53,647 nt of DNA from Verrucomicrobiota bacterium (GTDB taxonomy: Bacteria > Verrucomicrobiota > Kiritimatiellia > CAIQIC01 > JAGNIJ01). The stretch's first letter is position 1; each line of letters begins with the position of its first letter. Location: positions 1 to 53,647 of the forward strand of contig JAHJJH010000240.1 in assembly GCA_018823105.1 (NCBI GenBank), written 5' to 3'. The position numbers and the translations under genes are program-made. Positions 20,125-44,292 of this stretch are shown one piece after another. A model generated the notes under the pieces. That model saw only the letters and a program-made list of their open reading frames with translations, searched no databases and was not told where the DNA came from.

Positions 20125-20140
20125 TTTAGAATATTCTAAA
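20125..20140. promoter_or_regulatory. Perfect 16-bp palindrome TTTAGAATATTCTAAA, 9 nt upstream of the regulator gene (candidate operator)
   Basis: Read directly. The half-site CTTTTAGA recurs at 20011-20018. A TTGACG hexamer lies ~25 nt upstream. Confidence 0.5.
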
Positions 20141-20148
20141 CGCAGGAT

Positions 20149-20649: not shown

Positions 20650-20798
20650 AGCGAAGGTGTCGCAGGTTGGCGGCCCCATGAAAAGGGCTGAATACAGGGC
20701 GGGAGCAGGCAATTCCGGTCGGGAATTGACCGGGGCGAAGCCTGCCGATTTGAAGATTGGAGCATTCGCTGATTGGATGATTGGGTAAGTGAATAAGC

Positions 20799-21206: not shown

Positions 21207-21271
21207 TGAAACCATCCCATTTCTCGGTCAACCCGTTCACGAATTTTCCAATCATCTAATCCACCCTCCCC

Positions 21272-22585: not shown

Positions 22586-22628
22586 AGCCCGGCTCCTTTC
22601 ATCTCCAACGGCTATTCATTGTTCCTCT

Positions 22629-25367: not shown

Positions 25368-25368
25368 A

Positions 25369-26571: not shown

Positions 26572-26606
26572 CCTGAAACAACCATCTTTCCGCCATCGCA
26601 TCCCGG

Positions 26607-26641
26607 ATCCATTCTCCATTGACCATCCACCACTAACCATA
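26607..26641 (+). repeat. Five 7-nt-periodic units (nnCCAYn) in the G-poor pseB leader
   Basis: ATCCATT CTCCATT GACCATC CACCACT AACCATA. The leader begins with CCTGAAA (26572), as in the kdsB/kdsA tracts. Confidence 0.6.
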
Positions 26642-26651
26642 GGGTCATCCC

Positions 26652-27743
26652 ATGATTACACTCCGCCCCTTGGACTTTCTCGAAAACACCCGCATTCTGA
26701 TCACCGGGGGGACTGGTTCGCTAGGTAATAGGCTGATGCAAGTCATTCTTGGGGCTACGTCAGCGGCCCATGTCGTTATCTTAAGCCGTGATGAATTTAA
26801 GCAATATCAGATGCGAGAAGCGCAGGACGAGGCGGCTAGGCAACGCACCAGTTATTTCCTGGGCGATGTGCGGGATGCTTCCCGTTTGCGGCGCGCTTTC
26901 CAGGGTGTGGATTGCGTCATCCATACCGCCGCACTGAAGCAGGTTCCCGCTGCCGAATACAATCCTTTTGAGTTTATTAGGACCAACGTGGTCGGGGCGG
27001 AGAACGTTATAGATGCGGCGATTGATTGCGGGGTGTCTCGCGTCGTGGCTTTGAGCACGGACAAGGCTGCCAATCCCATCAATTTATATGGGGCCACCAA
27101 GCTCTGCTCTGATAAGCTCTTTGTGGCTGGCAACAGTTATAGCGGCAAGAAGAAAACACGTTTTTCGGTCGTCCGATATGGTAATGTGGTCGGCAGCCGC
27201 GGCAGCGTGATCCCGTTCTTCCTGGCGAAGCGCAAGAAAGGCGTTTTGCCCATCACCGATCCGCGGATGACGCGGTTCTGGATCACGCTGGATCAAGGTG
27301 CGGCCTTGGTGCTTAATGCCCTGCGCGAGATGAAAGGGGGCGAGATCTGGGTTCCCCGGATTCCTAGCCTGCGCATTACAGACCTGGCGCGAGTCATTGC
27401 GCCTGAATGCGAGACCCAGATTGTAGGTATTCGGCCAGGAGAGAAACTGCACGAGATCATGATCCCGGTGGATGACAGCCGTCAAACTCTCGAGTTTGAC
27501 AGCCATTTTATCATTAAGCCGGCCTTCCCATGGTGGGGCGGGGACTGGCACATGGAGAAAGGCGGGAAGCCGTGCCCGGATGGGTTTTATTACGGCAGCG
27601 ACAACAACACGGAGTGGCTGAACGACGCGCAGCTCGCGCAGATGATTACACGCTTGGATTTGCCGGACGCGCGGGAGTGGGCGAGCGAAAGAGGGCTGTC
27701 TCCCAGAAGCGGATCCGCCGGTGGCGGAGAGGCGGAAGACTGA
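26652..27743 (+). CDS. pseB: UDP-N-acetylglucosamine 4,6-dehydratase (inverting), PseB/FlaA1 type
   Basis: ITGGTGSLGN, SRDEFKQ and YGATKLCSDK. About 330-aa core plus a short Gly/Glu-rich tail. Confidence 0.9.
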   Translation: MITLRPLDFLENTRILITGGTGSLGNRLMQVILGATSAAHVVILSRDEFKQYQMREAQDEAARQRTSYFLGDVRDASRLRRAFQGVDCVIHTAALKQVPAAEYNPFEFIRTNVVGAENVIDAAIDCGVSRVVALSTDKAANPINLYGATKLCSDKLFVAGNSYSGKKKTRFSVVRYGNVVGSRGSVIPFFLAKRKKGVLPITDPRMTRFWITLDQGAALVLNALREMKGGEIWVPRIPSLRITDLARVIAPECETQIVGIRPGEKLHEIMIPVDDSRQTLEFDSHFIIKPAFPWWGGDWHMEKGGKPCPDGFYYGSDNNTEWLNDAQLAQMITRLDLPDAREWASERGLSPRSGSAGGGEAED

Positions 27744-27809
27744 GATCGCAGGGGGGACTTGTGGAGTGAGAGAGGATGGACTTCCGGTTGCCATCTTGAG
27801 GTGCGGATT

Positions 27810-29015
27810 ATGACTGACTCAGCTTTCATCCCTCATCCTTCATCCGTTATCCCCTACGGCCGCCAGTCCATTGACGAAGCCGATATCGCAGCCGTAACCG
27901 AGGTCCTGAAGTCACAATGGCTCACTCAAGGCCCGAAGGTGAAGGAGTTCGAGGGCGCCTTTGCCGCGAAGGTGGGAGCGCGATATGCGGTGGCGGTCAG
28001 CAGCGGGACGGCTGCCCTGCACGCTGCCATGGCCGCCTTGGGCATTGGCGCGGGCGACGAAGTCATCGTCCCGCCGATCACCTTTGCGGCAACGGCCAAC
28101 AGCGTAGTGTTTCAGGGCGCCACACCCGTGTTTGCCGACGTCGAGCCGGACACGCTTCTGATTGATCCGTGTAGCGTTGAGGAGCATGTGACGCGGAAAA
28201 CCAAAGTTGTTATTACCGTGGACTATGCCGGCCAGCCCTGCCGCTACGATGCCCTGAGAAAGCTGGCTCGGAAGCACGGACTGGTCCTCGTTGCCGACGC
28301 GTGTCATGCGCTGGGCGCTGTCTACAAGGGGCGTGCAGTCGGGTCGTTGGCCGATCTCAACACCTTCAGCTTCCACCCGGTTAAGCACATCACGACGGGT
28401 GAAGGCGGGATGATCACGACCGACGATGAAACGCTCACGCAACGTATGCGCGATTTCCGCACCCATGGCGTCACGAAGGATCCCGATAGTTTCCTGTCCT
28501 CTGACCCCTGTCCTCTGACCTCTGAAAAAGGGCCGTGGCACTACGAAATGCAGGCCCTCGGCTACAACTACCGCCTAAGCGACATCAGCTGCGCCCTGGG
28601 ACTTAGCCAGTTGAGAAAGCTTGATCGGTTCGTGACTCGCCGCCGTGAGATTGCTGCTCGCTTCGACAAGGCATTCCGCCCGCTGTCGTCAGTCCTCCGC
28701 CCGCTGGCTCTTGGATCCCAGACTTGCATGCACGCCTATCACCTCTACGTCGTGCAGGTCGATTTTCCAAAGCTCGGGAAAACCCGCACAAGGGTAATGC
28801 GCGAGTTGAGGGAGCGGGGCGTCGGCACGCAAGTCCACTACATTCCAGTTCACCTCCAGCCCTTTTACCGGGCCCGCTTTGGATGCAAGCCGGGTCAGTG
28901 TCCCGTCGCCGAGGAGGCTTTCGGACGTGTGCTATCCTTGCCGATGTATCCCGCGCTGCGCGATGAGGATGTGGAGCGTGTTGTCGAGGCTGTCCGCGGC
29001 GTCTTGAGCGACTGA
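27810..29015 (+). CDS. pseC: UDP-4-amino-4,6-dideoxy-N-acetyl-beta-L-altrosamine transaminase (DegT/PseC type)
   Basis: IPYGRQSIDEADI and FSFHPVKHITTGEGG (PLP lysine). Directly follows pseB. Confidence 0.88.
   Translation: MTDSAFIPHPSSVIPYGRQSIDEADIAAVTEVLKSQWLTQGPKVKEFEGAFAAKVGARYAVAVSSGTAALHAAMAALGIGAGDEVIVPPITFAATANSVVFQGATPVFADVEPDTLLIDPCSVEEHVTRKTKVVITVDYAGQPCRYDALRKLARKHGLVLVADACHALGAVYKGRAVGSLADLNTFSFHPVKHITTGEGGMITTDDETLTQRMRDFRTHGVTKDPDSFLSSDPCPLTSEKGPWHYEMQALGYNYRLSDISCALGLSQLRKLDRFVTRRREIAARFDKAFRPLSSVLRPLALGSQTCMHAYHLYVVQVDFPKLGKTRTRVMRELRERGVGTQVHYIPVHLQPFYRARFGCKPGQCPVAEEAFGRVLSLPMYPALRDEDVERVVEAVRGVLSD
28493..28527 (+). repeat. Perfect 14-nt tandem duplication (CCTGTCCTCTGACC x2, plus TCTGAAA) in frame inside pseC
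   Basis: Read directly at 28493-28506 and 28507-28520. It encodes the loop ...SSDPCPLTSEK..., which looks longer than in the PseC homologues I recall. Confidence 0.85.
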
Positions 29016-29019
29016 CCTC

Positions 29020-29955
29020 ATGAACGTGGTCCACAATCTGGATTTGACATGGCGCGAGGAAAGCGTCTCCCGGATGGTCTTGGGAACGGCCCAGTTGGGT
29101 TTGAACTACGGGATCGCCAATACCGACGACAAACCTGCCGCAGATGAGAGTCGCGAGATCATCAAGGCCGCATGGGGGGGCGGGGCGTGTTTTTTTGACA
29201 CGGCCCAGGGCTATGGAGACAGCGAAAAGGTTCTTGGTCAGTTCTTGAAGGAAGCCGGGGTGGTCGATCAGGCCGGCGTCATCACCAAGCTCGATCCGGG
29301 GTTGAATCCGGAAAACCCGAACGAGATCTACGACTCGATCGTCCGGTCGGCCGATCGGCTGGGAAAGCGGCCGTTATGGGCGGTTCTTCTGCATCGCGCC
29401 GAATGGCTCCGGTTCCTGGCCGGCGGTCTGGGAGAAGCCCTGAAGAAGGCGCGACGGGACAACCTGGTCCGGTTCCTCGGCGTGTCGGTTTACACCGTCG
29501 AAGAGGCCCGACAGGTTCTGACGTTTGAGGAAATGGACGTTCTGCAAATTCCGTGCAATGCGTGGGATCAGCGTATGCTGGCGTCCGGCCTGCTTGCGGA
29601 AGCGCGCAAGAAAGACCGATTGTGTTTCGTTCGCAGCATTTATTTGCAGGGCCTTCTGCTGATGACCGCGGCTCAGGTCGCCGCTCGTCTTCCGGACGCC
29701 GCCAAGGCGGCGGAATGCTGGTGGGCTGTTGCGGAAAAACTTCACATTCCTCCGGCTGAACTGGCCATGCGGTTCGCGCTGAGCTTGGATTGCCCGTTGG
29801 TCATTGGAGCGGAGCGCGCGGAGCAGGTTCGTACGAATGTAAACCTGATGAAGTTGAGCCCGTTGTCCAAATCGGAACGCGCCACGCTGGAAAAGGAAAT
29901 GCAACCGCTCATTTCAGCGGATATTCTGAACCCTGCGCGCTGGCAGCAGGCGTAA
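29020..29955 (+). CDS. Aldo/keto reductase family oxidoreductase
   Basis: GTAQLGLNYG and FDTAQGYGDSE. The length (311 aa) is typical. Confidence 0.8.
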   Translation: MNVVHNLDLTWREESVSRMVLGTAQLGLNYGIANTDDKPAADESREIIKAAWGGGACFFDTAQGYGDSEKVLGQFLKEAGVVDQAGVITKLDPGLNPENPNEIYDSIVRSADRLGKRPLWAVLLHRAEWLRFLAGGLGEALKKARRDNLVRFLGVSVYTVEEARQVLTFEEMDVLQIPCNAWDQRMLASGLLAEARKKDRLCFVRSIYLQGLLLMTAAQVAARLPDAAKAAECWWAVAEKLHIPPAELAMRFALSLDCPLVIGAERAEQVRTNVNLMKLSPLSKSERATLEKEMQPLISADILNPARWQQA

Positions 29956-29957
29956 AA

Positions 29958-30734
29958 ATGACAAAAGGGCAAACGCGCAGCGTCATGGCCATCCTACAGG
30001 CCCGGATGGGTTCTTCGCGACTGCCGGGCAAAATGTTGCTGCCGATCTATGGGGAAAAGGGCGCGTTGGAACTCATGCTGGAGCGGGTGCGAAGAGCCCG
30101 CCTTCTGGACCGAACCGTTGTCGCCACCACGGTGTCGGCGCAGGATGACCCGCTGGAAAAGCTCTGCGCCCGGCTGGGGGTCCCTTGTTTCCGGGGCAGC
30201 GAAGACGACGTTCTGGACCGGTACTACCAGGCCGCGATTCGGCACGGACCAGCGTCGGTTATTGTTCGTCTCACGGGCGACTGTCCCCTGCACGACGGGC
30301 GCGTGATCGATGAAGCGGTGCAGTCCTTTCTCAGCCAGCACGTCCATTATCTTTCCAACGCTTGGCCGCCGGTTTATCCCGACGGCCTGGATACGGAGGT
30401 TTTTTGGTTCACGGCGTTAGAAACGGCCTGGAAGGAAGCCCGCCTCAAATCGGAGCGGGAACACGTGACGCCCTACATCCGCAACCACCCGGAGCGGTTC
30501 CGCATCGGCCACATCCCGGCGCGGAAAGATCTTTCAGCGCTGCGCTGGACGCTGGATGAGCCGCGGGATCTTCAGTTCATTCGCGCCGTTTTCGCAAGGC
30601 TCGGCGACCGCGAGTTCGGGTTCGAAGATGTTTTGAGTCTGCTGGAACGTGAGCCCGGGTTGGGGGACATGAATGCTGGAATGCAACGCAACGAGGGCTA
30701 TCTGAAGTCGCTTCGGGAGGATCATCAATCGTGA
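29958..30734 (+). CDS. SpsF/FlmC-type cytidylyltransferase (CTP_transf_3 family), a candidate CMP-nonulosonate synthetase
   Basis: AILQARMGSSRLPGKML and RLTGDCPL. Start at ATG 29958, 2 nt after the AKR stop. Confidence 0.75.
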   Translation: MTKGQTRSVMAILQARMGSSRLPGKMLLPIYGEKGALELMLERVRRARLLDRTVVATTVSAQDDPLEKLCARLGVPCFRGSEDDVLDRYYQAAIRHGPASVIVRLTGDCPLHDGRVIDEAVQSFLSQHVHYLSNAWPPVYPDGLDTEVFWFTALETAWKEARLKSEREHVTPYIRNHPERFRIGHIPARKDLSALRWTLDEPRDLQFIRAVFARLGDREFGFEDVLSLLEREPGLGDMNAGMQRNEGYLKSLREDHQS

Positions 30735-32077
30735 AAGAATCTGCAGCGGGCGGAGGAAGGGGGCAACAGTTGTATCGCAGGGCCAAGATTTTGATCCCCG
30801 GCGGGACCCAGCTTTTATCGAAACGGCCCGAGATGTTCCTCCCGGATCAATGGCCGAGCTATTACGAGCGGGCCGAGGGCGCCTGCATCTGGGACCTGGA
30901 CGGCAATAAGTACATCGACATGTGCATCAGCGGAGTGGGGGCCTGCCCGCTGGGATATGCCGACCCGGACGTGAATGCGGCCGTGATAGATGCCGTGAGG
31001 CGGGGCAGCATGAGCACGCTGAATTGCCCCGAGGAAGTTGAGCTGGCGGAGGTGCTCTGCCGCCTGCATCCGTGGGCCCAAATGGTGCGTTTCGCGCGAA
31101 CGGGCGGCGAATCCATGTCCGTCGCCGTCCGGATCGCGCGTGCCTGGACCGGACGCTCGCAGGTCGCCTTTTGCGGGTATCACGGCTGGTCGGACTGGTA
31201 TCTCGCCGTCAATCTGGTTGAGAGCGATGCCTTGGGCAGCAAGGGTCTTCTGCTCTCCGGGCTTGAGCCGCGGGGCGTTCCGCGCGAGCTGACCGGCACG
31301 GCCTGGGGATTCCGTCATAACCATCTGGAAGAGCTTCGGGACATCGTTTCAAAGACGGGGGGAAACCTGGCCGCCATCATCACCGAGCCGCAACGGGGCG
31401 AACGTCCGACGCCGGAATTTCTGGCGGGATTGCGTCAGATCGCGAATGAAACCGGCGCGGTCTTGATTTTCGACGAGATCTCCGCCGCCATGCGACTGAA
31501 TACCGGCGGGGCTCATTTGCTTTACGGCCAGTCGCCCGACATCGCCGTTTTTTCCAAGTCGATCGGCAACGGGTTTGCCATCGGCGCCGTCATCGGCAAG
31601 GGCGAAGTCATGGAGGCGGCCCAAACGACGTTTCTGAGCAGCACCTATTGGACCGAACGAGTCGGGCCGGCGGCCGCGCTGGCAACATTCAGGAAACACG
31701 AAGCCCTCAACGTCCCGGAACGGTTGATTCATGCCGGGCGGCGGGTTCAGCAGGTCTGGAAGGACGAATCGCAGAAGGCGGGGCTCGCGGCCGAAGCGAG
31801 TCATCCCGAGATGCCGCCGCTCTCCCATCTCGTGTTCAAGTACCCCAACGCCAAGGCCGTCCAGACCCTGTTGTGTCAGATGATGCTGGAGCGCGGGTTC
31901 CTGGACAACGGGAATTTCTACGCCATGTATGCGCACACCGACGAGATCCTCGATCAGTATGAAGCCGTGGTCCGGGAGGTGTTTCCTCTGCTGGCGGACG
32001 CCGTGCAGCGTCAACGAGTGGAGGCCCTGTTGAAGGGCCCGGTCTCGCACAGCGGTTTTGCGCGGTTGACATCGTGA
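30731..32077 (+). CDS. Class III PLP aminotransferase (glutamate-1-semialdehyde aminomutase-like), GTG start overlapping the upstream stop
   Basis: LIFDEISAAMRL and VFSKSIGNGFAIGA (PLP lysine). Confidence 0.8.
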   Translation: MKESAAGGGRGQQLYRRAKILIPGGTQLLSKRPEMFLPDQWPSYYERAEGACIWDLDGNKYIDMCISGVGACPLGYADPDVNAAVIDAVRRGSMSTLNCPEEVELAEVLCRLHPWAQMVRFARTGGESMSVAVRIARAWTGRSQVAFCGYHGWSDWYLAVNLVESDALGSKGLLLSGLEPRGVPRELTGTAWGFRHNHLEELRDIVSKTGGNLAAIITEPQRGERPTPEFLAGLRQIANETGAVLIFDEISAAMRLNTGGAHLLYGQSPDIAVFSKSIGNGFAIGAVIGKGEVMEAAQTTFLSSTYWTERVGPAAALATFRKHEALNVPERLIHAGRRVQQVWKDESQKAGLAAEASHPEMPPLSHLVFKYPNAKAVQTLLCQMMLERGFLDNGNFYAMYAHTDEILDQYEAVVREVFPLLADAVQRQRVEALLKGPVSHSGFARLTS

Positions 32078-32109
32078 GAAGCGGTTGAAGACATGCGGCG
32101 GACGTGCCT

Positions 32110-32178
32110 GCCCGCATCGATACGCCCGCCAGCAACGCTTCGCGTAGCGATGCGGGCTGGCGAAGCGTTGCAGGCGGG
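32110..32178 (+). promoter_or_regulatory. Structured spacer element: 19-bp hairpin whose loop is complementary to a 10-nt upstream segment (pseudoknot-capable)
   Basis: Stem 32125-32143 pairs with 32160-32178 (18 of 19 pairs). gcccgcatcg (32110-32119) is the exact reverse complement of cgatgcgggc (32148-32157) in the loop. Confidence 0.5.
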
Positions 32179-32287
32179 GCAGTCCGCCCTCCACGTTGCC
32201 GTCAGTCAACGAATTCTGGAGGACGTGGTGCGGCTCGACGGAGCTCGCCGAAGTCCACGCGCGCCAGTTCATGATCAGGAATCGAGA

Positions 32288-33379
32288 ATGCCCCCTCGTG
32301 ATCCGACGGTACTGCTGATTCGTGCGGACGCCTCCGTCGCCGTCGGCGTCGGACACGTGATGAGGTGCCTGGCGCTGGCCCAGGAATGGAAACGTTCCGC
32401 TGGAGCCTGCGGAGGCAAAGGCCGAGCGGTCATGGCCGGCGTGGAATTTCCGGCGGGGCTGAAATCCCGCGTTGAAAACGAAGGGATCGAGATTCGTCCC
32501 GTTCGCGAGGTCCCGGGCAGCGCTGAGGACGCGGGACAACTGACTGAACTGGGCCGGGAAATCAACGCGGGCGTCATGGTGCTGGACGGTTATCATTTCA
32601 GCCGGGATTACCAGGCGCGTGTTCGCGTGTTCGGCGCTTTCCCGGTGATGGTGCTCGATGATTATGCAGAGATCGGCGGCCACGACGCGGATCTTATTCT
32701 CGATCAGAATTACGGCGCCGACGTTTCGTTGTATGGCACGTCTTCGCGGGTCGGCCGTTTCCTGCTGGGTACGGATTACGTTCTTCTGCGCCGTGAGTTC
32801 CGACTGCGTCGGAAGACGCCGCGCGATGTGGCAGACCGGGCCGGCAAAATACTGATCGCCATGGGCGGAAGCGATCCGGACAACCTCTCGGGAAAGGTCA
32901 TTGAGGTGTTGCGCGGACTTCTGGACGATGGTGCGACGTTCAAGGTCGTCGCGGGCCCGGCCTGTCCTCACCTGGATGTGCTTCGGAAACGCTCCGGGGA
33001 ATCCGCGGGGAGAATTGATTTGATCGCGGATTCAAACGACATGCCGGACTTGTTGGCGTGGGCAGACCTAGTGATCCTGGCGGGTGGGGGCACGTTGTGG
33101 GAGGCTTTGTGCATGGGGTGCCCGGTGGTGAGTCTGGCCCGGCATCCCGTCCAGGACGTGATCCTGGGAAAGATGGGGAAAGCGGGGATCATTGCTTACG
33201 CGGGGTTTGCCGCGTCCCTTGAAATGAAGGCATTTCAGGGCGAGATTATAGAGTTGGTTGCTTCGCGCCCACGTCGCGCCGAAATGAGTCGCAAAGGTCA
33301 ACAGTTGATTGACGGCGAGGGCACGTCACGGGTTGTCCGCGCTTTGTTCGACATGGTCAGCAGCAAGAAGACAAACTGA
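32288..33379 (+). CDS. pseG: UDP-2,4-diacetamido-2,4,6-trideoxy-beta-L-altropyranose hydrolase (PseG-like, GT-B fold)
   Basis: LIRADASVAVGVGHVMRCLALA at the N-terminus, MGGSDPDN, and AGGGTLWEALCMGCP. Start moved to ATG 32288, after the structured spacer. Confidence 0.75.
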   Translation: MPPRDPTVLLIRADASVAVGVGHVMRCLALAQEWKRSAGACGGKGRAVMAGVEFPAGLKSRVENEGIEIRPVREVPGSAEDAGQLTELGREINAGVMVLDGYHFSRDYQARVRVFGAFPVMVLDDYAEIGGHDADLILDQNYGADVSLYGTSSRVGRFLLGTDYVLLRREFRLRRKTPRDVADRAGKILIAMGGSDPDNLSGKVIEVLRGLLDDGATFKVVAGPACPHLDVLRKRSGESAGRIDLIADSNDMPDLLAWADLVILAGGGTLWEALCMGCPVVSLARHPVQDVILGKMGKAGIIAYAGFAASLEMKAFQGEIIELVASRPRRAEMSRKGQQLIDGEGTSRVVRALFDMVSSKKTN

Positions 33380-33380
33380 A

Positions 33381-34922
33381 GTGAACACGAATCCATCGAT
33401 CCTGCTCATTTTCCCCAATCCGATTGCCACCATTCCGGGCGGTCTGACCTACGTGGCCAAACGGTTCAAGCAGAACGGATTCGATGTGTCGGTCCTCATC
33501 AACGCCTTCCGCCATTTCCGCAGCATGGACAGCATCATGGATGAGGTTGTCCGCGTGAAGAATCCGGACGTCGTGGGGTTGGCCTTCGCGACGTTCAACG
33601 TTATAGAGGTGTACCGCCTGCAGCAACTTTGCAGGTCCGCCGGCTTCTTCGTGATCGCCGGCGGCAATCATCCCACGATACGGCCCGAGGAATGCCTGCA
33701 GCACGGTGCCGACCTGGTGTTCCGCGGCGAGTCCGAAACGGCCATCGACGAGTTTGCCCGATGGTTCAAAACCGGGCGCGACCCGGCCGCGCGCAAGGAT
33801 CTGGGCGGGATAAGTTATGTCGACGTGGACGGGCGGTTTGCGCACAACCCGAAGCATCCACGCCTGCGCGATCTGGACGCGCTCGGGGACATGGATTTTT
33901 CGGCGATCGATCTGGACGAGTTCCGCGTCGCGGACGGTTCGGTCAAAGGCCTGAACGCCGTCAGCTGCGGGCGGGGCTGTCCCTTTGACTGTTCCTTCTG
34001 CTCGCATCGCGACTGGTACCAGTACGCACACCGGAGCGCCGACAGCATCATCCAGGAGATGGTCACGCGCCACGAGAAATACGGGATCACGAATTTCTGG
34101 ATGTCTGACGAGACGTTCGTGGTCAAGAAGGATCGCGTCCACGACTTCTGCGACAAGCTGCTGGCGCTGAAGGCGCCCTTCACGTGGCTGATGGGCACGC
34201 GGGTCGGCACGGTGGACGAGGCACTGCTGAAGAAGATGAAGCAGGCTGGGCTGGCGCAGATCACCTACGGCGTCGAAAGCGCTCACGATGAGACTCTGAA
34301 TCGGGTTCACAAGGGCTACACGGCCCAGCAGGCGTACGACACGGTGCTGCTGACCGGGCAGGTCGGCGTCCCCATGTACATCAACCTGATGACCGGCTTC
34401 CCATGGGAGACCCCGGAACATTGCGAGGCGAACATCCGTTTCATCCATGCTGTGGACCGATACGTCAACTGCTTCCAACTGTATGGGGCGGTCATCCCGT
34501 ACCCCGATACGTCCATCTACGAGGAGTATCACGAAAAGGAAGGCTTCACCGACTGGTGGCTCAAGGAGCGGTACCAAGACGCCGGCATGGTGATCTACCA
34601 GAACGTCGCGAATCCGTACAAGGTCAGCACGTATTTCCAGCGGAACCTGTACGACGATACCTACGTGGCCGAGGACTATTTCTTCAAGTTCACGCCGGAG
34701 TACAAGAGGGCCGTGGCGCGGATGGGGCTGGTGATCGGCCGCAAGGCGATTGAGGCGGCGAGCAGCAGTCGCTGGCGCAAGCAGTGGCGTTACTCGCTGG
34801 GCGTCCTGTCGCAGCGCCTGTACGCGCTGCACCCGCGGCTGGAGATGAAGGTGGTTGGCTCGCTGAAAAAGGTGAACCGCCTGCACGAGACGCGGCTCAC
34901 GGGGCAGTTTATCAAGAAATGA
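33381..34922 (+). CDS. B12-binding-domain radical SAM enzyme (class B, methyltransferase-like), probable GTG start
   Basis: N-terminal Rossmann-like cobalamin domain (ILLIFPNP...) and CGRGCPFDCSFC (CxxxCxxC). Confidence 0.8.
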   Translation: MNTNPSILLIFPNPIATIPGGLTYVAKRFKQNGFDVSVLINAFRHFRSMDSIMDEVVRVKNPDVVGLAFATFNVIEVYRLQQLCRSAGFFVIAGGNHPTIRPEECLQHGADLVFRGESETAIDEFARWFKTGRDPAARKDLGGISYVDVDGRFAHNPKHPRLRDLDALGDMDFSAIDLDEFRVADGSVKGLNAVSCGRGCPFDCSFCSHRDWYQYAHRSADSIIQEMVTRHEKYGITNFWMSDETFVVKKDRVHDFCDKLLALKAPFTWLMGTRVGTVDEALLKKMKQAGLAQITYGVESAHDETLNRVHKGYTAQQAYDTVLLTGQVGVPMYINLMTGFPWETPEHCEANIRFIHAVDRYVNCFQLYGAVIPYPDTSIYEEYHEKEGFTDWWLKERYQDAGMVIYQNVANPYKVSTYFQRNLYDDTYVAEDYFFKFTPEYKRAVARMGLVIGRKAIEAASSSRWRKQWRYSLGVLSQRLYALHPRLEMKVVGSLKKVNRLHETRLTGQFIKK

Positions 34923-36067
34923 AGCGCGCGATCAGGCCATCTTCGCTGTTGGTGTTATGCCAGGACACGGGCTCCGCGAACGCGCTGGCCGCTTTCCTGG
35001 TGTCTTCGAACAGGGCGAGGGGCGTGTATTTCCTCGTGTGTCGGGAATCCGTGCGGGCCGTTTTCGAACGGCAGAACATCAAACCCAGTAGCGTTTTCCG
35101 GGATGAATTGTCGGTGGCGGAACTCGAAGACCTCCTGGAGCGGCCGAGACCGGCCGTGGTGTTGCTGGGCAGCAGTCTGGACTTGTGGACGGAGCGACGG
35201 TGTTGCGAGCTGGCGCGCGGACGGATTCCCTGCGTGAGCCTGGTGGATTGGTGGAGCAATTTCGGCCGGCGTTTTTCATCGCCGGAGACTCTTGACCTTC
35301 GCTATCTGCCGGATCGTGTGGGCGTCCTGGATGAGGACTCTCGCGCCGGATGCGTGGCTGAAGGCGTGCCGGAAACTGCGTTGACCGTTACGGGGAATCC
35401 TTATTGGGATCGGCTGCTCGGGATTTCGGAGCAGGCGAACTCCGCGGCGCGTGGCCAGGCCCGCGCGCGGTTGGGACTTCCCGAGTCCGCCGCCGTTGCG
35501 CTGCTGGTTTCCAGCGACATACGAAATCTGCCGCTGAGACTTGGATACACGGAGGCCGATTTCTTCTCGGCCCTGGCGCCCTTGCCGCCCCGCGCCGGGG
35601 ATGGCCGCGATGTGGTCTGGCTCGTTAAGCCGCATCCGCGCGAGTCCGTGGAAGACACCCGCCGTCTGATGGCGAGTCATCACATAGACGCCCGCCTCCT
35701 GGCCGATGCGACGGGGGAGGAAGCGGTCGTTGCCGCGGATTACGTGATTGGGATGTGCTCGAGCCTTCTGCTGGAGGCGGCTCTGTTGAAGAAAAGAATC
35801 CTGTCCGTTCAGCCAGGAATGAATCCCGCTTCATTTCGTTATTTCTCCATATTCAAACGGCTTGGCATTCCCACGGTTACGCGGACGGCGGAAGTTCGGC
35901 CCTTGGTCCAGCGACTGGTCTCCGACGAAGGGCCCGTGCCGGATTTGTCGAAGCTGCCGCCGCCCATCGGCGACGGTCGAGCGGCCGCGCGCATCGACGC
36001 GGTGTTGGACGGATTTCACGGTCGCGGACCCGTCGCGAAATCGGCCCTGCTCAAGGAGACGGTATGA
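34919..36067 (+). CDS. Uncharacterised protein, GT-B-like, with a VKPHPRE motif (possible CMP-sugar-dependent transferase)
   Basis: ATGA overlaps at both ends. High GC3. Motifs VGVLDED and WLVKPHPRES. No family was confidently recognised. Confidence 0.5.
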   Translation: MKRAIRPSSLLVLCQDTGSANALAAFLVSSNRARGVYFLVCRESVRAVFERQNIKPSSVFRDELSVAELEDLLERPRPAVVLLGSSLDLWTERRCCELARGRIPCVSLVDWWSNFGRRFSSPETLDLRYLPDRVGVLDEDSRAGCVAEGVPETALTVTGNPYWDRLLGISEQANSAARGQARARLGLPESAAVALLVSSDIRNLPLRLGYTEADFFSALAPLPPRAGDGRDVVWLVKPHPRESVEDTRRLMASHHIDARLLADATGEEAVVAADYVIGMCSSLLLEAALLKKRILSVQPGMNPASFRYFSIFKRLGIPTVTRTAEVRPLVQRLVSDEGPVPDLSKLPPPIGDGRAAARIDAVLDGFHGRGPVAKSALLKETV

Positions 36068-36948
36068 ACCGTCCGAGCTACAAGTTGATTCAAGACCCCG
36101 AATACGGGTTCCTGAGGATCGATCCCGTTCCGACCCGGGAAGAGGTGGACCGCTACTACCGCGAGGAGTTCTATTCCAAGCTAAAAAGTTTTAACGACTC
36201 CGCCCTGGAAGTGCAGTTGGAGGAAAAGGAATTCATGGACAGCCGCTGGGCGGCCATGTGCGACGCGTGCCGCCGCGTGCTGGGTCGTGTGCAGGGCCTT
36301 TCGGTTCTCGATGTTGGCTGCGGGTTTGCGCAAGCGCTCCTCTATTTCCGGGAGCAGGGGATGGAGGCCAGCGGTTTGGAGCCGGCTCCCGAGGGCGTGG
36401 CGTATGCCCGCGCGAAAGGCGTGGAGGTTTTCGAGGCCGACATCGAGGATTTCGACTGCGTCGGTGGGCGTCGTTTTGACGTCGTGACCCTGATCAATGT
36501 GCTCGAGCATTTGCGGCAGCCTGCGGAAACGCTTCGGCAGATCAGGGACAAGCTGCTGAATCGCGGCGGGCTGCTGATCCTGGACGTGGCGAACGAGTTC
36601 AACGATTTCCAGACGACGGCCGACGCGGAGTATCGTCTGAACCAGTGGTGGTTGTGCCCGCCGAACCACATCAACTATTTTTCCGTCACGAGCCTGTGCC
36701 GCCTGCTGGAACGGTGCGGCTTCAACGTCGTGCACAAGGAAGCGTCTTTTCCCGTGGAGTTGTTCATGCTCCTGGGCGACGTGTACGTCAGGCATCCAGC
36801 GCTGGGACGCGATTGCCACAAGAAGCGGGTCCAATTCGAGCGGCTGATGCGGAAGCACGGAAAGGCGGACAAGTTGTCGCGGTTCTACCAGGCGCTGGCG
36901 GAACTGGACTTGGGGCGACAGGTGGTGGTTGGCGCGACCCCGCGCTGA
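36064..36948 (+). CDS. Class I SAM-dependent methyltransferase
   Basis: VLDVGCGFAQ (motif I) and FDVVTLINVLEHL. ATGA overlap with the upstream gene. Confidence 0.8.
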   Translation: MNRPSYKLIQDPEYGFLRIDPVPTREEVDRYYREEFYSKLKSFNDSALEVQLEEKEFMDSRWAAMCDACRRVLGRVQGLSVLDVGCGFAQALLYFREQGMEASGLEPAPEGVAYARAKGVEVFEADIEDFDCVGGRRFDVVTLINVLEHLRQPAETLRQIRDKLLNRGGLLILDVANEFNDFQTTADAEYRLNQWWLCPPNHINYFSVTSLCRLLERCGFNVVHKEASFPVELFMLLGDVYVRHPALGRDCHKKRVQFERLMRKHGKADKLSRFYQALAELDLGRQVVVGATPR

Positions 36949-36979
36949 TGAAAGACGCAAGGGTCGCTATGGAGATCTT

Positions 36980-38050
36980 ATGGAATTGATTGCATTATCC
37001 CGTTTTACCGGCGACGAGACCGAGGGAAGAATTCCGCCATTTTCGGAGCTTCGGACCATGCGGCCGCTGGAACTGACGCAGTACCTGGAAATCTATGACA
37101 CGCTGGAGAACCGCGCGTACCTGTCGCAGTTGCTCGAGTCCGGAACGACCGTCGCTCCGGTGCGACGCCAGCCTCCGTCGCCCAAGTTCCTCAACCGGGG
37201 AGAATTTCCGCGTCGGATTGCGTTCGAAATGACGAGCCGGTGTAATTTCCTCTGCCGCATGTGCCCGCAGCAGAACCTGACGCGGCCGCGCATGGATATG
37301 CCCGGCACGCTGTACCGGAAGGTGATCGACGAGATTGACCGCTACGGCATTGAAGGGCTCTGGATGTATCACTTGGGCGAATCCCTCCTGCACCCGGAGT
37401 TCCGCGAAAACGTGGAGCACATTTCCAGCAAGAAAAACCTGGGCATCATCTGGATGAGCACGAACGGCCGCTATTTCACCGAGGAGTATATCCGGCTGGT
37501 CCTGCGGTCGAACATCACCTACATCAATTTTTCGGTGCACGCCGTCACCGAGGACACGTACGGAACCGTCGCGCCCCGCGAGAATTTCGCCACCGTGCAG
37601 GACAACCTGGCCGCGCTGTATCGGCTCAAGCAGGCGTCGGGTAAGTCCGGAACTCCCTTTCTCCGATGCCAGATGATCGAGCAGGAGACGACCCGACACG
37701 AGGTGGACCCGTTCATTCGCGACCATGTACGAAGGGCTGACCTAGTCAGCATCAACATGCTCGAATACGTCAATCTTCCAAACAATGCCTACGGCATGAA
37801 ACAGCGCGCGCGGAGACCGCTGACGAATTGCCTGCGCGTCACGCGGAACGATTGCTTCATTTGTTCCAATGGGACGGTGACGTTGTGCGACGCGGCCTAC
37901 AACGGCGAGATCTTCCTCGGCAATGTGGAAACGGAATCGCTGTTTGACATCTGGAATGGCAAAAAGCGAAAAGCCATCATGGACCTTAATGCCCGGGGCC
38001 GCATGAGCGAGATCCCGTTCTGTTGTCAGTGCACGGACTACGATATCTGA
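36980..38050 (+). CDS. Radical SAM enzyme with a C-terminal Cys-rich SPASM-like domain
   Basis: TSRCNFLCRMCPQ (CxxxCxxC). C-terminal CLRVTRNDCFICSNGTVTLCD and CCQCTDYD. Confidence 0.8.
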   Translation: MELIALSRFTGDETEGRIPPFSELRTMRPLELTQYLEIYDTLENRAYLSQLLESGTTVAPVRRQPPSPKFLNRGEFPRRIAFEMTSRCNFLCRMCPQQNLTRPRMDMPGTLYRKVIDEIDRYGIEGLWMYHLGESLLHPEFRENVEHISSKKNLGIIWMSTNGRYFTEEYIRLVLRSNITYINFSVHAVTEDTYGTVAPRENFATVQDNLAALYRLKQASGKSGTPFLRCQMIEQETTRHEVDPFIRDHVRRADLVSINMLEYVNLPNNAYGMKQRARRPLTNCLRVTRNDCFICSNGTVTLCDAAYNGEIFLGNVETESLFDIWNGKKRKAIMDLNARGRMSEIPFCCQCTDYDI

Positions 38051-38565
38051 TGTCGACTCAACCGCTCCAGGTTGCGTTGGTTCCCTTTTCGAAGGATCAT
38101 GTTGCACAGACCTTCAGATGGGTCAGCGATCCTGATCTGCGCCGCACGTTTCTAATCCGCGGCGTGCCGACCTGGGAGGGTCACCTGGCCTATTCCGACC
38201 GGGTGCTCGCGGATTCGAGCCAGAAGGTTTTCGCGATCCTTGCCGCGGGACAGCACGTCGGCAACTGCGGGTTCAAACATCTCGAACCCGCGGCGAAGCG
38301 CGGAGAACAGTGGTTGTACGTCGGCGACCGTTCCTGGCGTGGCCGCGGGGTCGGCAAGGCCGCAGCGGAAGTCCTTTTGCAGGAGGGATTCCAAGCCCTG
38401 GGCCTTGAGCTCATCTACCTGCACGTGGCCGATTTCAATGAGCCGGCGCGAAGGCTGTATGAGCGGCTGGGATTCGTCGAAGTGCCGCTTCAGGATCCGT
38501 CGGGCGAATGGCAAATCCGCGGCTTTCGGATGATCCGTATGGAATTGAGGAAGCCGCGATTATGA
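38050..38565 (+). CDS. pseH: GNAT N-acetyltransferase, PseH-like
   Basis: FRWVSDPDLRRTF and WRGRGVGKAA (acetyl-CoA loop). Located between radical SAM genes and pseI. The function call is by context. Confidence 0.65.
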   Translation: MSTQPLQVALVPFSKDHVAQTFRWVSDPDLRRTFLIRGVPTWEGHLAYSDRVLADSSQKVFAILAAGQHVGNCGFKHLEPAAKRGEQWLYVGDRSWRGRGVGKAAAEVLLQEGFQALGLELIYLHVADFNEPARRLYERLGFVEVPLQDPSGEWQIRGFRMIRMELRKPRL

Positions 38566-39338
38566 AGGTCGCGATGATGCAGCCCGCGTTCCTGCCGTGG
38601 CAGGGATTCTTCGAGCTTATTGCCAAGGCAGATCGTTTTGTCTTTCTGGACGATTTCCAGTTCTCCGTTCAAAGCTACCACCAACGCAACCGCCTGTTCG
38701 TGAATCCCGGCAAGGCGGATTGGTACACAGTGCCGATCCGGAAAAGCCTGTCCTTCGGCGAACCGCTGAATCTCACGCAGGTCGCCGAGGACGGCTCGTG
38801 GCGGATGAAAATGTGGAAACGAATCCGGATGAACTACGCCAAGGCGCCGCATTTCGGTGAACTGTCCGGGCCGCTGCAAAACTGGCTGCTGCACCCGTGG
38901 GGGACACTGGCGGCCCAGAACATGGAATTCATCCGATGGGTGTGCGGGTTGCTCCGCTTGGCGCCGGAATTCCGCCTTAGTTCGTCTTTCCCCTGCACGG
39001 CGCAGCGCTCGGCCCGCGTGCGGGAAATCCTTCAATGGTGCGAGGGTCAGGTCTACTTCTCCGCGCGCGGTTCCTTCGAGTACATGTTGGCGGACGGCGT
39101 CTTCCCGATGGAGGGGATGGAGGCGCGCTTCCAGGATTTCCAGCCGAAACCATACCCGCAAGTGGGCAGCCCCGATTCATTCGTGCCGTGCTTGGCGATT
39201 CTCGATGCCCTGCTGAACGTGGGGCCCGAGGCGACGCGGCAACTGGTCGTCGGCGGGACTTCGCACTGGTGGTCGTGGGAGGAGATGAAGGCTGTGCGTG
39301 CCGGACGCGAGGGGATAGAGGAGCCGTCGGAGCAATGA
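38562..39338 (+). CDS. WbqC-family protein (uncharacterised glycan-cluster family)
   Basis: MQPAFLPWQGFFELI is the characteristic N-terminus. ATGA overlaps at both ends. Confidence 0.8.
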   Translation: MKVAMMQPAFLPWQGFFELIAKADRFVFLDDFQFSVQSYHQRNRLFVNPGKADWYTVPIRKSLSFGEPLNLTQVAEDGSWRMKMWKRIRMNYAKAPHFGELSGPLQNWLLHPWGTLAAQNMEFIRWVCGLLRLAPEFRLSSSFPCTAQRSARVREILQWCEGQVYFSARGSFEYMLADGVFPMEGMEARFQDFQPKPYPQVGSPDSFVPCLAILDALLNVGPEATRQLVVGGTSHWWSWEEMKAVRAGREGIEEPSEQ

Positions 39339-40372
39339 AAATAGGCTGCAGAAAAATCGGGGCGGGCGAGCCGGTGTGTGTAGTTGCCGAGCTTTCCGCG
39401 AATCACAACCAGCATTTCGACGAGGCGGTCCGCCTCATCCACGCCGCGAAGGATGCGGGGGCAGATGCCGTCAAGCTGCAGACCTATACGGCCGACACGA
39501 TCACGCTCGATTGCCGCAACGAGTATTTTCAGATCAAGGGGACGTTGTGGGCCGGGAGAAATCTTCATGACCTGTACAAGGAAGCCTTCACGCCGTGGGA
39601 CTGGCAGCCCAAGCTGAAAAAGGAGGCCGACGCCCTGGGGCTGCCGCTCTTCTCGACGCCCTTCGACCGTTCGGCCGTAGATTTCCTCGAGCAGATGAAC
39701 GTGCCGGCCTACAAGGTGGCCTCGCTTGAAATTGTCGATATTCCACTGATCCAATATATAGCGCGTCTCGGGAAGCCCGTATTGCTCTCGACGGGCGCTT
39801 CCGCACTGAAAGAGATCGAGGAGGCGGTGGCGGCGATCCGCGCGGAGGGTAACGATCAGATCGCCCTGTTAAAGTGTACCAGCGCCTATCCCGCGCCGCC
39901 GGACGAAATGAATCTGCGCACCATCCCCGACCTTGCGGAACATTTTAACGTGCCGGTGGGATTGTCGGATCATACGTTGGGCATCGCCGCGGCGGTGGCG
40001 TCCGTGGCCCTGGGCGCATGCGTCATTGAAAAGCATTTCACACTACGAAGAGCCAACGGCGGGCCGGACAGCGCATTTTCCCTCGAGCCGCATGAGTTCA
40101 AGGCCATGGTTGTGGCCGTGCGCGAGGCGCAGCAGGCTCTGGGCGCTGTTTCGTACGAGGTGTCAGAGCACGAAAAGGCCAGCCGGGTTTATCGACGGTC
40201 GCTGTTTGTTGTGGAGGACGTCAAGACAGGCGCGCGGTTTACGGAGCAAAACGTCCGCTCCATCCGGCCCGGCTACGGCCTGCCGCCGAAACACCTGGGC
40301 GATGTACTCGGGAAAAAGGCCACGCGAGACATCGAGCGCGGGACCCCGCTGAAGTGGGAACTCGTCGAGTAA
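39335..40372 (+). CDS. pseI: Pseudaminic acid synthase (NeuB family with a C-terminal SAF domain)
   Basis: VVAELSANHNQ, KLQTYTADT, GLSDHTLG and the SAF-type tail VRSIRPGYGLPPKHL. Confidence 0.9.
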   Translation: MKIGCRKIGAGEPVCVVAELSANHNQHFDEAVRLIHAAKDAGADAVKLQTYTADTITLDCRNEYFQIKGTLWAGRNLHDLYKEAFTPWDWQPKLKKEADALGLPLFSTPFDRSAVDFLEQMNVPAYKVASLEIVDIPLIQYIARLGKPVLLSTGASALKEIEEAVAAIRAEGNDQIALLKCTSAYPAPPDEMNLRTIPDLAEHFNVPVGLSDHTLGIAAAVASVALGACVIEKHFTLRRANGGPDSAFSLEPHEFKAMVVAVREAQQALGAVSYEVSEHEKASRVYRRSLFVVEDVKTGARFTEQNVRSIRPGYGLPPKHLGDVLGKKATRDIERGTPLKWELVE

Positions 40373-40510
40373 CCCAGATCATGCTGCCGCCTGTGTCAGC
40401 CGGGGGCTCCTATATTGGTCAATACGGCGAGATGGTCATATGCCCTGCGTATGTCTCGGCCTTTGAAATGGCGGGCTGAATCACTCCGCTTGCGAAACCC
40501 TGAAGCGGGT

Positions 40511-44283: not shown

Positions 44284-44292
44284 GATCTGGCC

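Follow-up and report, generated by a model that had tools for sequence, protein, structure and literature searches.

A 53,647-nucleotide stretch of DNA from a Verrucomicrobiota bacterium (contig JAHJJH010000240.1 of assembly GCA_018823105.1, positions 1 to 53,647, here called the window) carries, at positions 26652-40372, an operon that combines the biosynthesis of pseudaminic acid (Pse) with two radical S-adenosylmethionine (SAM) enzymes. Open reading frame (ORF) and family scans of the window identify 13 densely packed genes in this region, all on the + strand, and the same gene set recurs together with pseB, pseC, pseG and pseI in 12 other loci belonging to several phyla, partly in shuffled order. 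The operon constitutes a genuine and conserved extension of the Pse pathway that has yet to be characterised. It appears, on balance, to be one copy of a conserved and horizontally shared operon for a CMP-activated, further-tailored nonulosonic acid of the Pse type used in surface glycans. The extra genes very probably serve to tailor this sugar or substituents on it.

Nonulosonic acids (sialic, legionaminic and pseudaminic acids) are major determinants of surface recognition, flagellar assembly and immune evasion. To our knowledge, all known routes to these sugars use conventional two-electron enzymes, and we know of radical SAM sugar chemistry mainly from antibiotic pathways, namely those of butirosin, gentamicin, apramycin and desosamine. 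A full-text literature search retrieved no paper on a radical SAM enzyme in nonulosonic acid biosynthesis and no triamino nonulosonic acid; the nearest match mentions, in passing, a radical SAM ORF in Legionella lipopolysaccharide loci. The same search yielded no described Pse derivative made by such a route, in agreement with an initial annotation of this DNA made from the sequence alone.

The core enzymes of the Pse pathway are present and intact, and the whole set co-occurs and is co-directional. Four enzymes exceed the equivalog cut-offs of NCBIfam. These are PseB, the inverting UDP-N-acetylglucosamine (UDP-GlcNAc) 4,6-dehydratase (26652-27743; TIGR03589, 497.3 bits against a cut-off of 407.75), which also matches the Pfam model Polysacc_synt_2 with 333 bits, PseC, the UDP-4-amino-4,6-dideoxy-N-acetyl-beta-L-altrosamine transaminase (27810-29015; TIGR03588, 488 against 423.5 bits), PseG, the UDP-2,4-diacetamido-2,4,6-trideoxy-beta-L-altropyranose hydrolase (32288-33379; TIGR03590, 175.7 against 153.55 bits), and PseI, the pseudaminic acid synthase with NeuB and SAF domains (39335-40372; TIGR03586, 506.1 against 340.25 bits). 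For the GNAT N-acetyltransferase in the operon (38050-38565; Acetyltransf_3, 63 bits) TIGR03585 is the best NCBIfam model yet scores below its cut-off (49.8 against 93.1 bits), so that 'PseH-like' is the right label. Likewise, no PseF-family enzyme is detected in the operon by NCBIfam, and the SpsF-type CTP_transf_3 cytidylyltransferase (CTP3, 29958-30734; PF02348, 95.9 bits), the presumed CMP-nonulosonate synthetase of the module, gives no match to TIGR03584. Together, PseB, PseC, the GNAT, PseG and PseI in all likelihood build the 5,7-diamino-3,5,7,9-tetradeoxy-L-glycero-L-manno skeleton from UDP-GlcNAc.

The remaining genes are set among these. Between pseC and pseG, CTP3 is flanked by a non-canonical aldo/keto reductase (AKR, 29020-29955; PF00248, 93 bits) and a non-canonical class III aminotransferase (AT3, 30731-32077; PF00202, 142 bits), a pyridoxal phosphate (PLP) enzyme resembling glutamate-1-semialdehyde (GSA) aminomutase. 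Between pseG and the GNAT gene lie a B12-binding radical SAM enzyme of the class B type (B12-rSAM, 33381-34922), a protein whose AlphaFold model has the GT-B/UDP-GlcNAc 2-epimerase fold (the GT-B protein, 34919-36067), a class I SAM methyltransferase (MT, 36064-36948; Methyltransf_23, 94.7 bits) and a second radical SAM enzyme, a BtrN-like twitch/SPASM protein and putative radical dehydrogenase (SPASM, 36980-38050). A WbqC-family protein (38562-39338) follows the GNAT and matches PF08889 over model positions 1-217 of 218 with 182.6 bits, against a cut-off of 21.3. The initial annotation had the positions and strand of the genes it named right, recognised pseB, pseC, pseG, a pseH-like gene and pseI, and placed WbqC correctly between the last two. 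Its four extra genes between pseG and the GNAT are indeed present, but it had overlooked the AKR, CTP3 and AT3 between pseC and pseG.

ATGA overlaps join successive genes at 34919, 36064, 38562 and 39335, a TGATG overlap is found at 38050, and the start of AT3 overlaps the stop codon of CTP3 by 4 nt (GTGA). The almost unbroken series of overlaps first proposed for the stretch from pseG to pseI holds for five of the seven junctions, but not for pseG/B12-rSAM, where TGAaGTG leaves a 1-nt spacer and no overlap, nor for MT/SPASM, where the gap is 31 nt when SPASM starts at ATG 36980. This start gives a protein of 355-356 aa, a length common to more than 100 homologues, of which the shorter NCBI call represents 93%. 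The start of pseC was set at ATG 27810, inside the ORF 27759-29015, and that of pseG at ATG 32288, which leaves a non-coding gap of 210 nt behind AT3 (32078-32287), the sole sizeable gap within the operon. An alternative pseG start at ATG 32093 would add a 65-residue Arg/Ala-rich extension and exceed the 345-366 aa of the proteins in the PseG position of related loci. Neither a promoter-like site nor an Rfam element was found in this gap; indeed, Rfam gave no matches in the whole window, hence no cobalamin or SAM riboswitch there or elsewhere. A scan of 25500-45400 revealed no sigma-70-like promoter on the coding strand, a consensus that may not apply to Verrucomicrobia, and 7 terminator-like sites compared to 18.9 in shuffled sequence. 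This is weakly consistent with a single transcription unit.

The neighbourhoods of B12-rSAM and SPASM homologues were fetched and the window proteins compared with them by tblastn; a metagenome scan with the GT-B family gave seven loci. Conserved synteny places the arrangement far beyond chance. The order pseB, pseC, AKR, CTP3, AT3, pseG, B12-rSAM, GT-B, MT, SPASM, GNAT, WbqC, pseI is identical in loci L087 and L098, and is repeated without B12-rSAM and GT-B in L094 (a Saganbacteria contig) and L097. All genes are present in shuffled order in L001 (the cultured Desulfonema magnum, CP061800 at 3.05-3.07 Mb), L002 (an Omnitrophica metagenome-assembled genome, MAG), L085, L088 and L090, and versions without B12-rSAM and GT-B occur in L093 (an Acetobacterium MAG) and L096 (an Elusimicrobia MAG). 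The taxon-labelled loci thus comprise Desulfonema magnum, Omnitrophica, Saganbacteria, Elusimicrobia and Acetobacterium. The block consists of two evolutionary units. A widespread base module of 11 genes includes AKR, CTP3, AT3, MT, SPASM and WbqC, and an add-on of two genes, B12-rSAM and GT-B in that order, is present only in a subset of loci, where the pair slots exactly between pseG and MT; B12-rSAM is absent from at least four otherwise complete modules. The four genes nested between pseG and the GNAT had been taken for one coupled unit, which they are not: MT and SPASM belong to the base module, and B12-rSAM and GT-B form the separate add-on.

Within the base module several associations are close to invariable. 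MT lies directly upstream of SPASM, as its partner, in the window and in L002, L083, L085, L087, L088, L093, L094, L097 and L098, and wherever a related locus still has an AKR, it adjoins CTP3 and AT3, L091 having a short-chain dehydrogenase/reductase (SDR) instead. In L001, L002, L093, L094 and L096-L098, no CTP_transf_3 gene other than CTP3 lies within +/-10 kb. WbqC is always beside, or fused to, an N-acyltransferase, and in the Omnitrophica locus the GNAT is replaced by a formyltransferase. Gene fusions tie the components together further. CTP3 and AT3 form one protein of 696 aa in Desulfonema, GNAT and WbqC one protein of 427 aa in L098, and GNAT is joined to the GT-B protein in L090 and in one library representative; in other GT-B relatives the fusion partner is FolD or a GFO_IDH oxidoreductase. 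In the NCBIfam 'spiro-SPASM' model (TIGR04321) the C-terminal part (positions 229-505) aligns to the SPASM enzyme with 52.9 bits, and the N-terminal part aligns weakly to CTP3 (18.3 bits, E 7.5e-4). A fusion of an SpsF-like cytidylyltransferase to an AKR has been described in a Vibrio Pse cluster (PMC7371886). Given these fusions and the synteny across phyla, the extra genes are very unlikely to have unrelated substrates, and the view that they belong with the Pse genes, put forward from the window alone, is borne out by the recovery of the block in 12 other loci and by the CTP3-AT3, GNAT-GT-B and GNAT-WbqC fusions.

The genes next to the module indicate where its product is used. The base module is located beside flagellin and Maf genes in L093 and beside flagellin and FliD/FliS genes in L097, while Wzx flippases adjoin it in L002, L094 and L098, a Maf-like protein in L090, and the ABC transporter Wzm/Wzt in the window. 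The presence of flagellin genes in some loci, and of Wzx or Wzm/Wzt in others, implies that the module feeds both flagellin glycosylation and polysaccharide synthesis, and the glycan of the window is probably exported by Wzm/Wzt. Exceptions to the pattern were also recorded. A B12-rSAM orthologue (53% identity) occurs in L091 with CTP3, AT3 and the SDR, in a nonulosonate cluster that lacks SPASM, MT and GT-B, and a B12-rSAM relative (38% identity) occurs in an unrelated dTDP-sugar context.

The SPASM enzyme matches PF04055 (50.2 bits) and the SPASM domain PF13186 (38.5 bits) in Pfam, and belongs to a very uniform family of more than 120 homologue clusters at 54% identity or above, all of about 355 aa. 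In an hmmsearch of the family profile against PDB, BtrN is found at 4.5e-16 and the next match at 3.7e-3. The match to BtrN comes in two stretches, one of which covers the four invariant C-terminal cysteines C284, C303, C348 and C351; these fall in the segment aligned to BtrN residues 168-237 (SCM, PC, CKNC), whose cysteines presumably are the ligands of the BtrN auxiliary cluster. The radical SAM cysteines C88, C92 and C95 (CxxxCxxC) are likewise invariant across the family. Foldseek searches with the AlphaFold model (mean confidence, pLDDT, 90.7) also rank BtrN first (1.8e-12, template modelling score (TM) by target 0.68-0.76), followed by SuiB, SkfB, DesII, BlsE and EpeE, so that BtrN is the nearest solved relative by both sequence profile and fold. 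Judged by profile and model, the enzyme is BtrN-like and a putative sugar radical dehydrogenase. In the BtrN reaction a secondary alcohol on an aminocyclitol is oxidised, which prepares the ring for a second amine from an aminotransferase. As to the aminotransferase of the operon, the closest PDB relatives of AT3 are GSA aminomutases (5e-41), and the aminoglycoside (gentamicin-type) C-6' aminotransferases and epimerase, among them the 6'-epimerase/C-6' aminotransferase 9AU3, follow at 5e-33 and weaker; the motif FSKSIGNG, seen by eye in its translation, possibly contains the PLP-binding lysine. CTP3 matches the 'cytidylyltransferase' 6OEW in PDB at 2e-44. In Bacillus subtilis, SpsF is required for the transfer of legionaminic acid (Leg) to the spore surface (PMC7439481). 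With these genetic data, and with CTP3 as the sole cytidylyltransferase near the module in seven other loci, there is good reason to infer that the SpsF-type CTP3 stands in for PseF and activates the product with CMP.

Further radical SAM genes are found in other arrangements. Directly after WbqC in Desulfonema magnum (CP061800, 13687-18354 of L001), an unusual multidomain protein of 1,555 aa contains radical SAM, SPASM and methyltransferase domains besides glycoside-hydrolase-like and terpene-cyclase-like regions. On the plasmid CP026658 of Deltaproteobacteria bacterium Smac51 (L099, 9070-14030), a distant SPASM paralogue (24.6% identity), annotated as 'molybdenum cofactor biosynthesis protein', is followed by a DegT aminotransferase of the perosamine-synthetase type, an AsnB-like amidotransferase and a class I methyltransferase, repeating the theme of radical SAM enzyme, aminotransferase and methyltransferase. 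Similar SPASM paralogues are carried by plasmids of Brachyspira hyodysenteriae and Lawsonia.

The B12-rSAM enzyme has an N-terminal B12-binding domain (PF02310, 54.6 bits against a cut-off of 32.1) and a radical SAM core (PF04055, 69.1 bits), carries the CGRGCPFDCSFC motif, and constitutes an orthologue family of its own, with about 50 clusters at 50% identity or above, in which C200, C204 and C207 (CxxxCxxC) are invariant. All its NCBIfam matches stay below the cut-offs, the best being BchE (147.9 bits), followed by the enzyme ApyD, which acts on ribosomally synthesised and post-translationally modified peptides (RiPPs), and with HpnJ at 118.6 bits. In PDB, its profile finds AprD4 (2e-33, radical SAM core only), OxsB (7e-29), TsrM (8e-18) and TokK (6e-17), and an unnamed protein, 9CCB, also outranks the methylases TsrM, TokK and CysS. 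The alignment continues through the N-terminal domain with the B12-dependent OxsB, TsrM, TokK and CysS. The score remains below the cut-off of every methylase model in the set (HpnR, PhpK, TsrM, KedN5, RiPP C-methyltransferases, Mmp10 and others), which lacked models for GenK and Fom3. BchE, HpnJ, AprD4 and OxsB are not methyltransferases. It is therefore doubtful that the B12-rSAM is a C-methyltransferase, and of the classification that the initial annotation had left to be settled for the two radical SAM enzymes, SPASM is BtrN-like while the B12-rSAM falls in no curated family. The proposal of a C-alkylated product, based solely on the generalisation that class B enzymes are methylases, is not upheld: no methylase cut-off is passed and the best relatives are non-methylases. 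As far as the sequence relationships go, C-alkylation is only one of several equally open chemistries for the modified sugar, no more likely than an epimerisation or the gain of an amino or N-methyl group. A phosphonate pathway of the Fom3 type was also considered and dropped, no PEP (phosphoenolpyruvate) mutase being found among the scanned ORFs of the window or in the called-gene tables of the related loci.

The second add-on gene encodes a protein that matches no family above threshold, Epimerase_2 (PF02350) coming closest with 15.7 bits against a gathering cut-off of 30.6. Its AlphaFold model (pLDDT 88) has the UDP-GlcNAc 2-epimerase/GT-B fold, and the top 50 Foldseek matches are all 2-epimerases of the UDP-HexNAc type (WecB, MnaA, NeuC, CapG and relatives), with TM about 0.65, 12-19% identity and E down to 2e-13. 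By profile, the best match in PDB is the 3-deoxy-D-manno-octulosonic acid (Kdo) transferase KpsC at a non-significant E of 0.034, and WecB appears at 0.3-0.6. The superfamily is large and unannotated (707 representatives at 1e-30 and 5,822 at 1e-3), and the clade tied to the operon comprises about 15 close representatives; the motifs DWWSNF, GNPYW and KPHPRE are invariant in the family. A relationship of the GT-B protein to the polysialyltransferase-like protein of the window, to a 796-aa protein downstream of pseI or to PseG was tried and rejected, as hhalign gave probabilities of 1-18% with only W-x-K-x-HPR(E) in common, too little for a classification as transferase. For WbqC, no relative was found in PDB with either the single sequence or an 8-member profile.

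The combination of a BtrN-like SPASM enzyme with AT3 and AKR favours carbonyl chemistry, that is amination or epimerisation, over alkylation. The constant extras AKR, AT3, MT, SPASM and WbqC may accordingly be pictured as a carbonyl-centred tailoring branch. In such a branch, the twitch/SPASM enzyme would oxidise a C-OH of the sugar to a ketone without oxygen, most plausibly at C8 or C4, where Pse has its only free hydroxyls, with the nonulosonate or its CMP ester as substrate. AT3 would then turn the ketone into an amine and the adjacent MT would N-methylate the new amine; alternatively, AKR would reduce the ketone back with inverted stereochemistry. The logic would be that of the butirosin pathway, with BtrN and its aminotransferase, and of the gentamicin pathway, with GenQ/GenB1/GenL. 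The B12-rSAM/GT-B pair would add an optional step in a subset of lineages, the GT-B protein binding a nucleotide-sugar on which the B12-rSAM would carry out a radical C-H functionalisation, either C-methylation or a rearrangement or dehydration of the AprD4/OxsB/HpnJ type. The pathway would end in a so far undescribed Pse derivative. By analogy with these pathways, the oxidise-aminate-methylate sequence exactly as specified is a tentative proposal and unlikely to be right in every step. It is conceivable, although short of probable, that the operon represents the first radical-SAM-dependent branch of nonulosonic acid biosynthesis, placing a third (methyl)amino group on Pse and, in the B12-rSAM/GT-B subset, adding a radical C-methylation or rearrangement, with a new class of nine- or ten-carbon sialic-acid-like sugars on the flagella and O-antigens of groups that are mostly anaerobic and to a large extent uncultured (Verrucomicrobia, Desulfobacterota, Omnitrophica, Elusimicrobia, Saganbacteria and acetogens). 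A DesII-type deamination of the PseC product was judged unlikely, as the amino group would move to C3 of the hexose, equivalent to C6 of the nonulosonate, the oxygen of which would be needed for ring closure.

A number of observations weigh against this tailoring branch. The substrate, the carbon attacked and the stage at which the enzymes act (UDP-hexose, free nonulosonate or CMP-nonulosonate) are guesses. SPASM is only distantly similar to BtrN (16-17% identity when aligned by Foldseek), the next fold matches SuiB and SkfB are RiPP maturases, and a SPASM orthologue with 64% identity stands alone in an unrelated context on a Binatia contig. The GT-B protein shares W-x-K-x-HPRE with the polysialyltransferase-like (PF07388) protein of the window, for which reason it could be a transferase and not a biosynthetic enzyme. 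Moreover, the AKR/CTP/AT3 trio occurs without a radical SAM gene in the O-antigen cluster of Legionella pneumophila Sg6/Sg12 (PMC3694923), as does the SpsF-like CTP-AKR fusion in the Vibrio Pse cluster (PMC7371886), and the trio must therefore have a role that is independent of SPASM.

Other explanations of the extra genes start from the individual enzymes. Should the B12-rSAM be a class B methylase, it might C-methylate an unactivated carbon of a Pse intermediate (the C9-forming 6-deoxy methyl or a ring carbon) and give rise to a C-alkylated or chain-extended nonulosonic acid. Methylases make up the majority of the characterised class B enzymes, and gentamicin biosynthesis offers a precedent, in which the B12-rSAM GenK, an aminotransferase of class III and an N-methyltransferase all act at one sugar carbon. 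The enzyme of the operon has both the B12-binding domain and the radical SAM core, its profile aligns with TsrM, TokK and CysS over both, and its gene is tightly coupled to those of the nucleotide-sugar-fold protein and MT. However, it does not reach the cut-offs of the methylase families, its best matches of known reaction or in PDB (BchE, HpnJ, AprD4 and OxsB) are all non-methyltransferases, and its absence from at least four complete modules means that it is not part of the pathway core. Such a C-methylation is thus possible but unlikely. A rather less probable explanation is that the extra genes build or decorate an unusual N-acyl or O-linked substituent, attached by WbqC and the acyltransferase, and leave the nine-carbon skeleton unaltered. 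The N-methyl-glutamyl group on a Leg derivative of Clostridium botulinum is a precedent, and so is the 2-methoxy-4,5,6-trihydroxyhexanoyl group on the flagellin nonulosonate of Treponema denticola (PMC13439194). The explanation would agree with the constant link of WbqC to an N-acyltransferase, with a varying N-substituent, as the exchange for a formyltransferase in one locus implies, with the GSA-aminomutase-like AT3, which would suit an amino-acid-derived side chain, and with the CTP-like domain fused to SPASM in spirochaetes (the TIGR04321 family). Yet family scans reveal no acyl-CoA ligase, acyl carrier protein or ATP-grasp ligase inside the conserved module, and the nearest relative of SPASM works directly on an aminocyclitol ring.

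The branch might also merely invert stereochemistry, either by radical oxidation with SPASM and reduction with AKR or by a PLP-dependent epimerisation with AT3 such as GenB2 performs, to give a known Pse isomer (an 8-epimer, or a 4-epimer of the fusaminic acid type) that may also be methylated on O or N. A dehydrogenase-like radical SAM enzyme and a ketoreductase-fold AKR in one module, the presence of 9AU3 among the relatives of AT3, and the occurrence of the AKR/CTP/AT3 trio alongside pseG, DegT, CapD and NeuB homologues in the Legionella O-antigen cluster (PMC3694923) point in this direction, but the constant pairing of MT with SPASM would be left unexplained, as would the retention of both aminotransferase and reductase in nearly all loci, and pure epimerisation is accordingly improbable. 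Still more improbable is that the GT-B protein is a CMP-Pse-dependent glycosyltransferase and that the radical SAM enzymes and MT modify the glycan or glycoprotein after transfer instead of the nucleotide-sugar. The family does lie between the Epimerase_2, Glyphos_transf and polysialyltransferase models, with KpsC as best profile match and W-x-K-x-HPRE in common with the PF07388 protein, and the fold matches of SPASM do include peptide-modifying enzymes. Against this, the GT-B protein is kept at 38-50% identity although its neighbours imply different acceptors (Wzm/Wzt, Wzx in L002 and L098, a Maf-like protein in L090), its fusion partners are biosynthetic (GNAT, FolD, GFO_IDH) and not acceptor-binding domains, and its 50 best fold matches are 2-epimerases throughout. 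That the nested genes merely travel with the operon and belong, say, to a RiPP or cofactor maturation system is an idea close to refuted. ApyD as second-best NCBIfam match of the B12-rSAM, the weak matches of SPASM to NCBIfam maturase models and the orphan orthologue in Binatia would fit it, but not the co-occurrence with Pse genes in 12 other loci of several phyla despite reshuffling, nor the fusions to Pse enzymes; in addition, gene tables and family scans show no peptidase or RiPP-type exporter inside the module, small precursor ORFs lying outside this screen.

The operon is embedded in a large surface-glycan region in which nearly all genes are on the + strand and the G+C content is about 0.56-0.69. 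Outside the operon, the window encodes KdsA-like and KdsB-like proteins, Wza, Wzc, an initiating sugar transferase, an FkbM methyltransferase, an O-antigen-ligase-like protein, Wzm, Wzt and a BNR/sialidase-like protein, with further glycan genes downstream. Around the FkbM methyltransferase and the O-antigen-ligase-like gene (19000-23000) the G+C content is 0.56-0.59, compared to 0.60-0.69 elsewhere, which is typical of horizontally exchanged O-antigen genes. The gene directly upstream of pseB (25276-26571) is that of the BNR/sialidase-like protein, which scores 42.7 bits with BNR_2 (cut-off 31.4). Read as the longest ORF, it would share 92 nt with the Wzt gene, and the true start is probably later. 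A sialidase-fold protein beside a nonulosonic acid operon might trim or process the glycan. The S-adenosylmethionine synthetase gene metK (10345-11523) belongs to the same co-directional string, which also carries three radical SAM enzymes and at least four SAM-dependent methyltransferases, although this placement may be a coincidence.

The co-directional string runs on past pseI with a 796-aa soluble protein and a second B12-rSAM of 493 aa (42802-44283), the two genes (40415-44283) overlapping by 4 nt. The 796-aa protein has no Pfam or NCBIfam match and no hydrophobic segments, and contains 'WRLKMHPR', which resembles the HP motif region of the GT-B family (34919-36067). The second B12-rSAM, followed by genes for a GT4 glycosyltransferase and a methyltransferase, shares only some 23-25% identity with the orthologues of the operon enzyme; the Pse clusters L067 and L088 also contain a relative of it (33-35% identity). 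Some 6 kb downstream of the operon, a second nonulosonate-like module (46397-49846) consists of a NeuB homologue of 282 aa without the C-terminal SAF domain (NeuB model, 251 bits against a cut-off of 400), a PseF-like CTP_transf_3 protein (47326-48045; TIGR03584, 111.9 against 205.7 bits), a class IV aminotransferase of the IlvE/D-amino-acid type and an SDR. Beyond this module is the gene for the polysialyltransferase-family protein (51508-52674; PF07388, 77.8 bits), and the two together suggest a second ulosonic acid, possibly polymerised.

If the tailoring branch exists as proposed, radical SAM sugar chemistry would extend into primary cell-surface glycan synthesis. For many anaerobes, among them candidate phyla without cultured members, new sugars would then be predicted on flagella and in lipopolysaccharides. 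The branch would also give a first functional handle on three orphan families, namely WbqC, the GT-B-fold family with its approximately 700 or more members, and the trio of SpsF, AKR and class III aminotransferase known from Legionella and Vibrio clusters, and would supply enzymes for the chemoenzymatic synthesis of modified sialic acid analogues. As Desulfonema magnum is cultured and has the full set of 13 genes, the prediction is directly testable in this organism.

Compared to the canonical CMP-Pse pathway of Campylobacter and Helicobacter, the operon is alike in PseB, PseC, PseG and PseI and in having a GNAT in the PseH position, and the same starting substrate and L-glycero-L-manno skeleton are expected. 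It differs in its SpsF-type CTP_transf_3 enzyme in place of a PseF-family protein, in a GNAT below the PseH cut-off, and in seven extra genes (AKR, AT3, B12-rSAM, GT-B, MT, twitch/SPASM and WbqC). Accessory genes likewise lie beside pseG, pseC and neuB homologues in the sps operon of B. subtilis, in L. pneumophila Sg6/12 and in Vibrio sp. B9-25K2, and in these clusters SpsF is the cytidylyltransferase in place of NeuA/PseF; by their descriptions, however, they have no SPASM radical SAM enzyme, module MT or B12-rSAM/GT-B pair (PMC7439481, PMC3694923, PMC7371886). The GT-B protein shares its fold (TM about 0.65) and a weak Epimerase_2 match with the non-hydrolysing (WecB/MnaA) and hydrolysing (NeuC/LegG) 2-epimerases, but is 12-19% identical to them, below the Pfam cut-off, and has its own motifs DWWSNF, GNPYW and KPHPRE; a second nucleotide-sugar hydrolase is also not obviously needed in an operon that already has a canonical PseG.

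The closest parallels for the extra genes come from the aminoglycosides. SPASM resembles BtrN, the 2-deoxy-scyllo-inosamine dehydrogenase of butirosin biosynthesis, in the CxxxCxxC motif, the aligned C-terminal Cys segment and the partnership with an aminotransferase, whereas its identity is only 16-17%, some 75 residues at its N-terminus form an extra domain, it carries additional Cys residues, in a region classed by Pfam as SPASM, and it would act on a nonulosonate or nucleotide-sugar and not on an aminocyclitol, with a partner aminotransferase of class III and not of the DegT type. Gentamicin C-6' tailoring employs the B12-rSAM C-methylase GenK, the dehydrogenase GenQ, the class III aminotransferases/epimerase GenB1-4 and the N-methylase GenL, and these enzyme classes match the B12-rSAM, oxidoreductase, class III aminotransferase and class I methyltransferase of the operon. 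The B12-rSAM is likened to GenK by enzyme class only, being closer to AprD4 and OxsB among solved structures, while AT3 matches GenB-type structures at 5e-33; the product of the operon would be a building block of surface glycans rather than an antibiotic.

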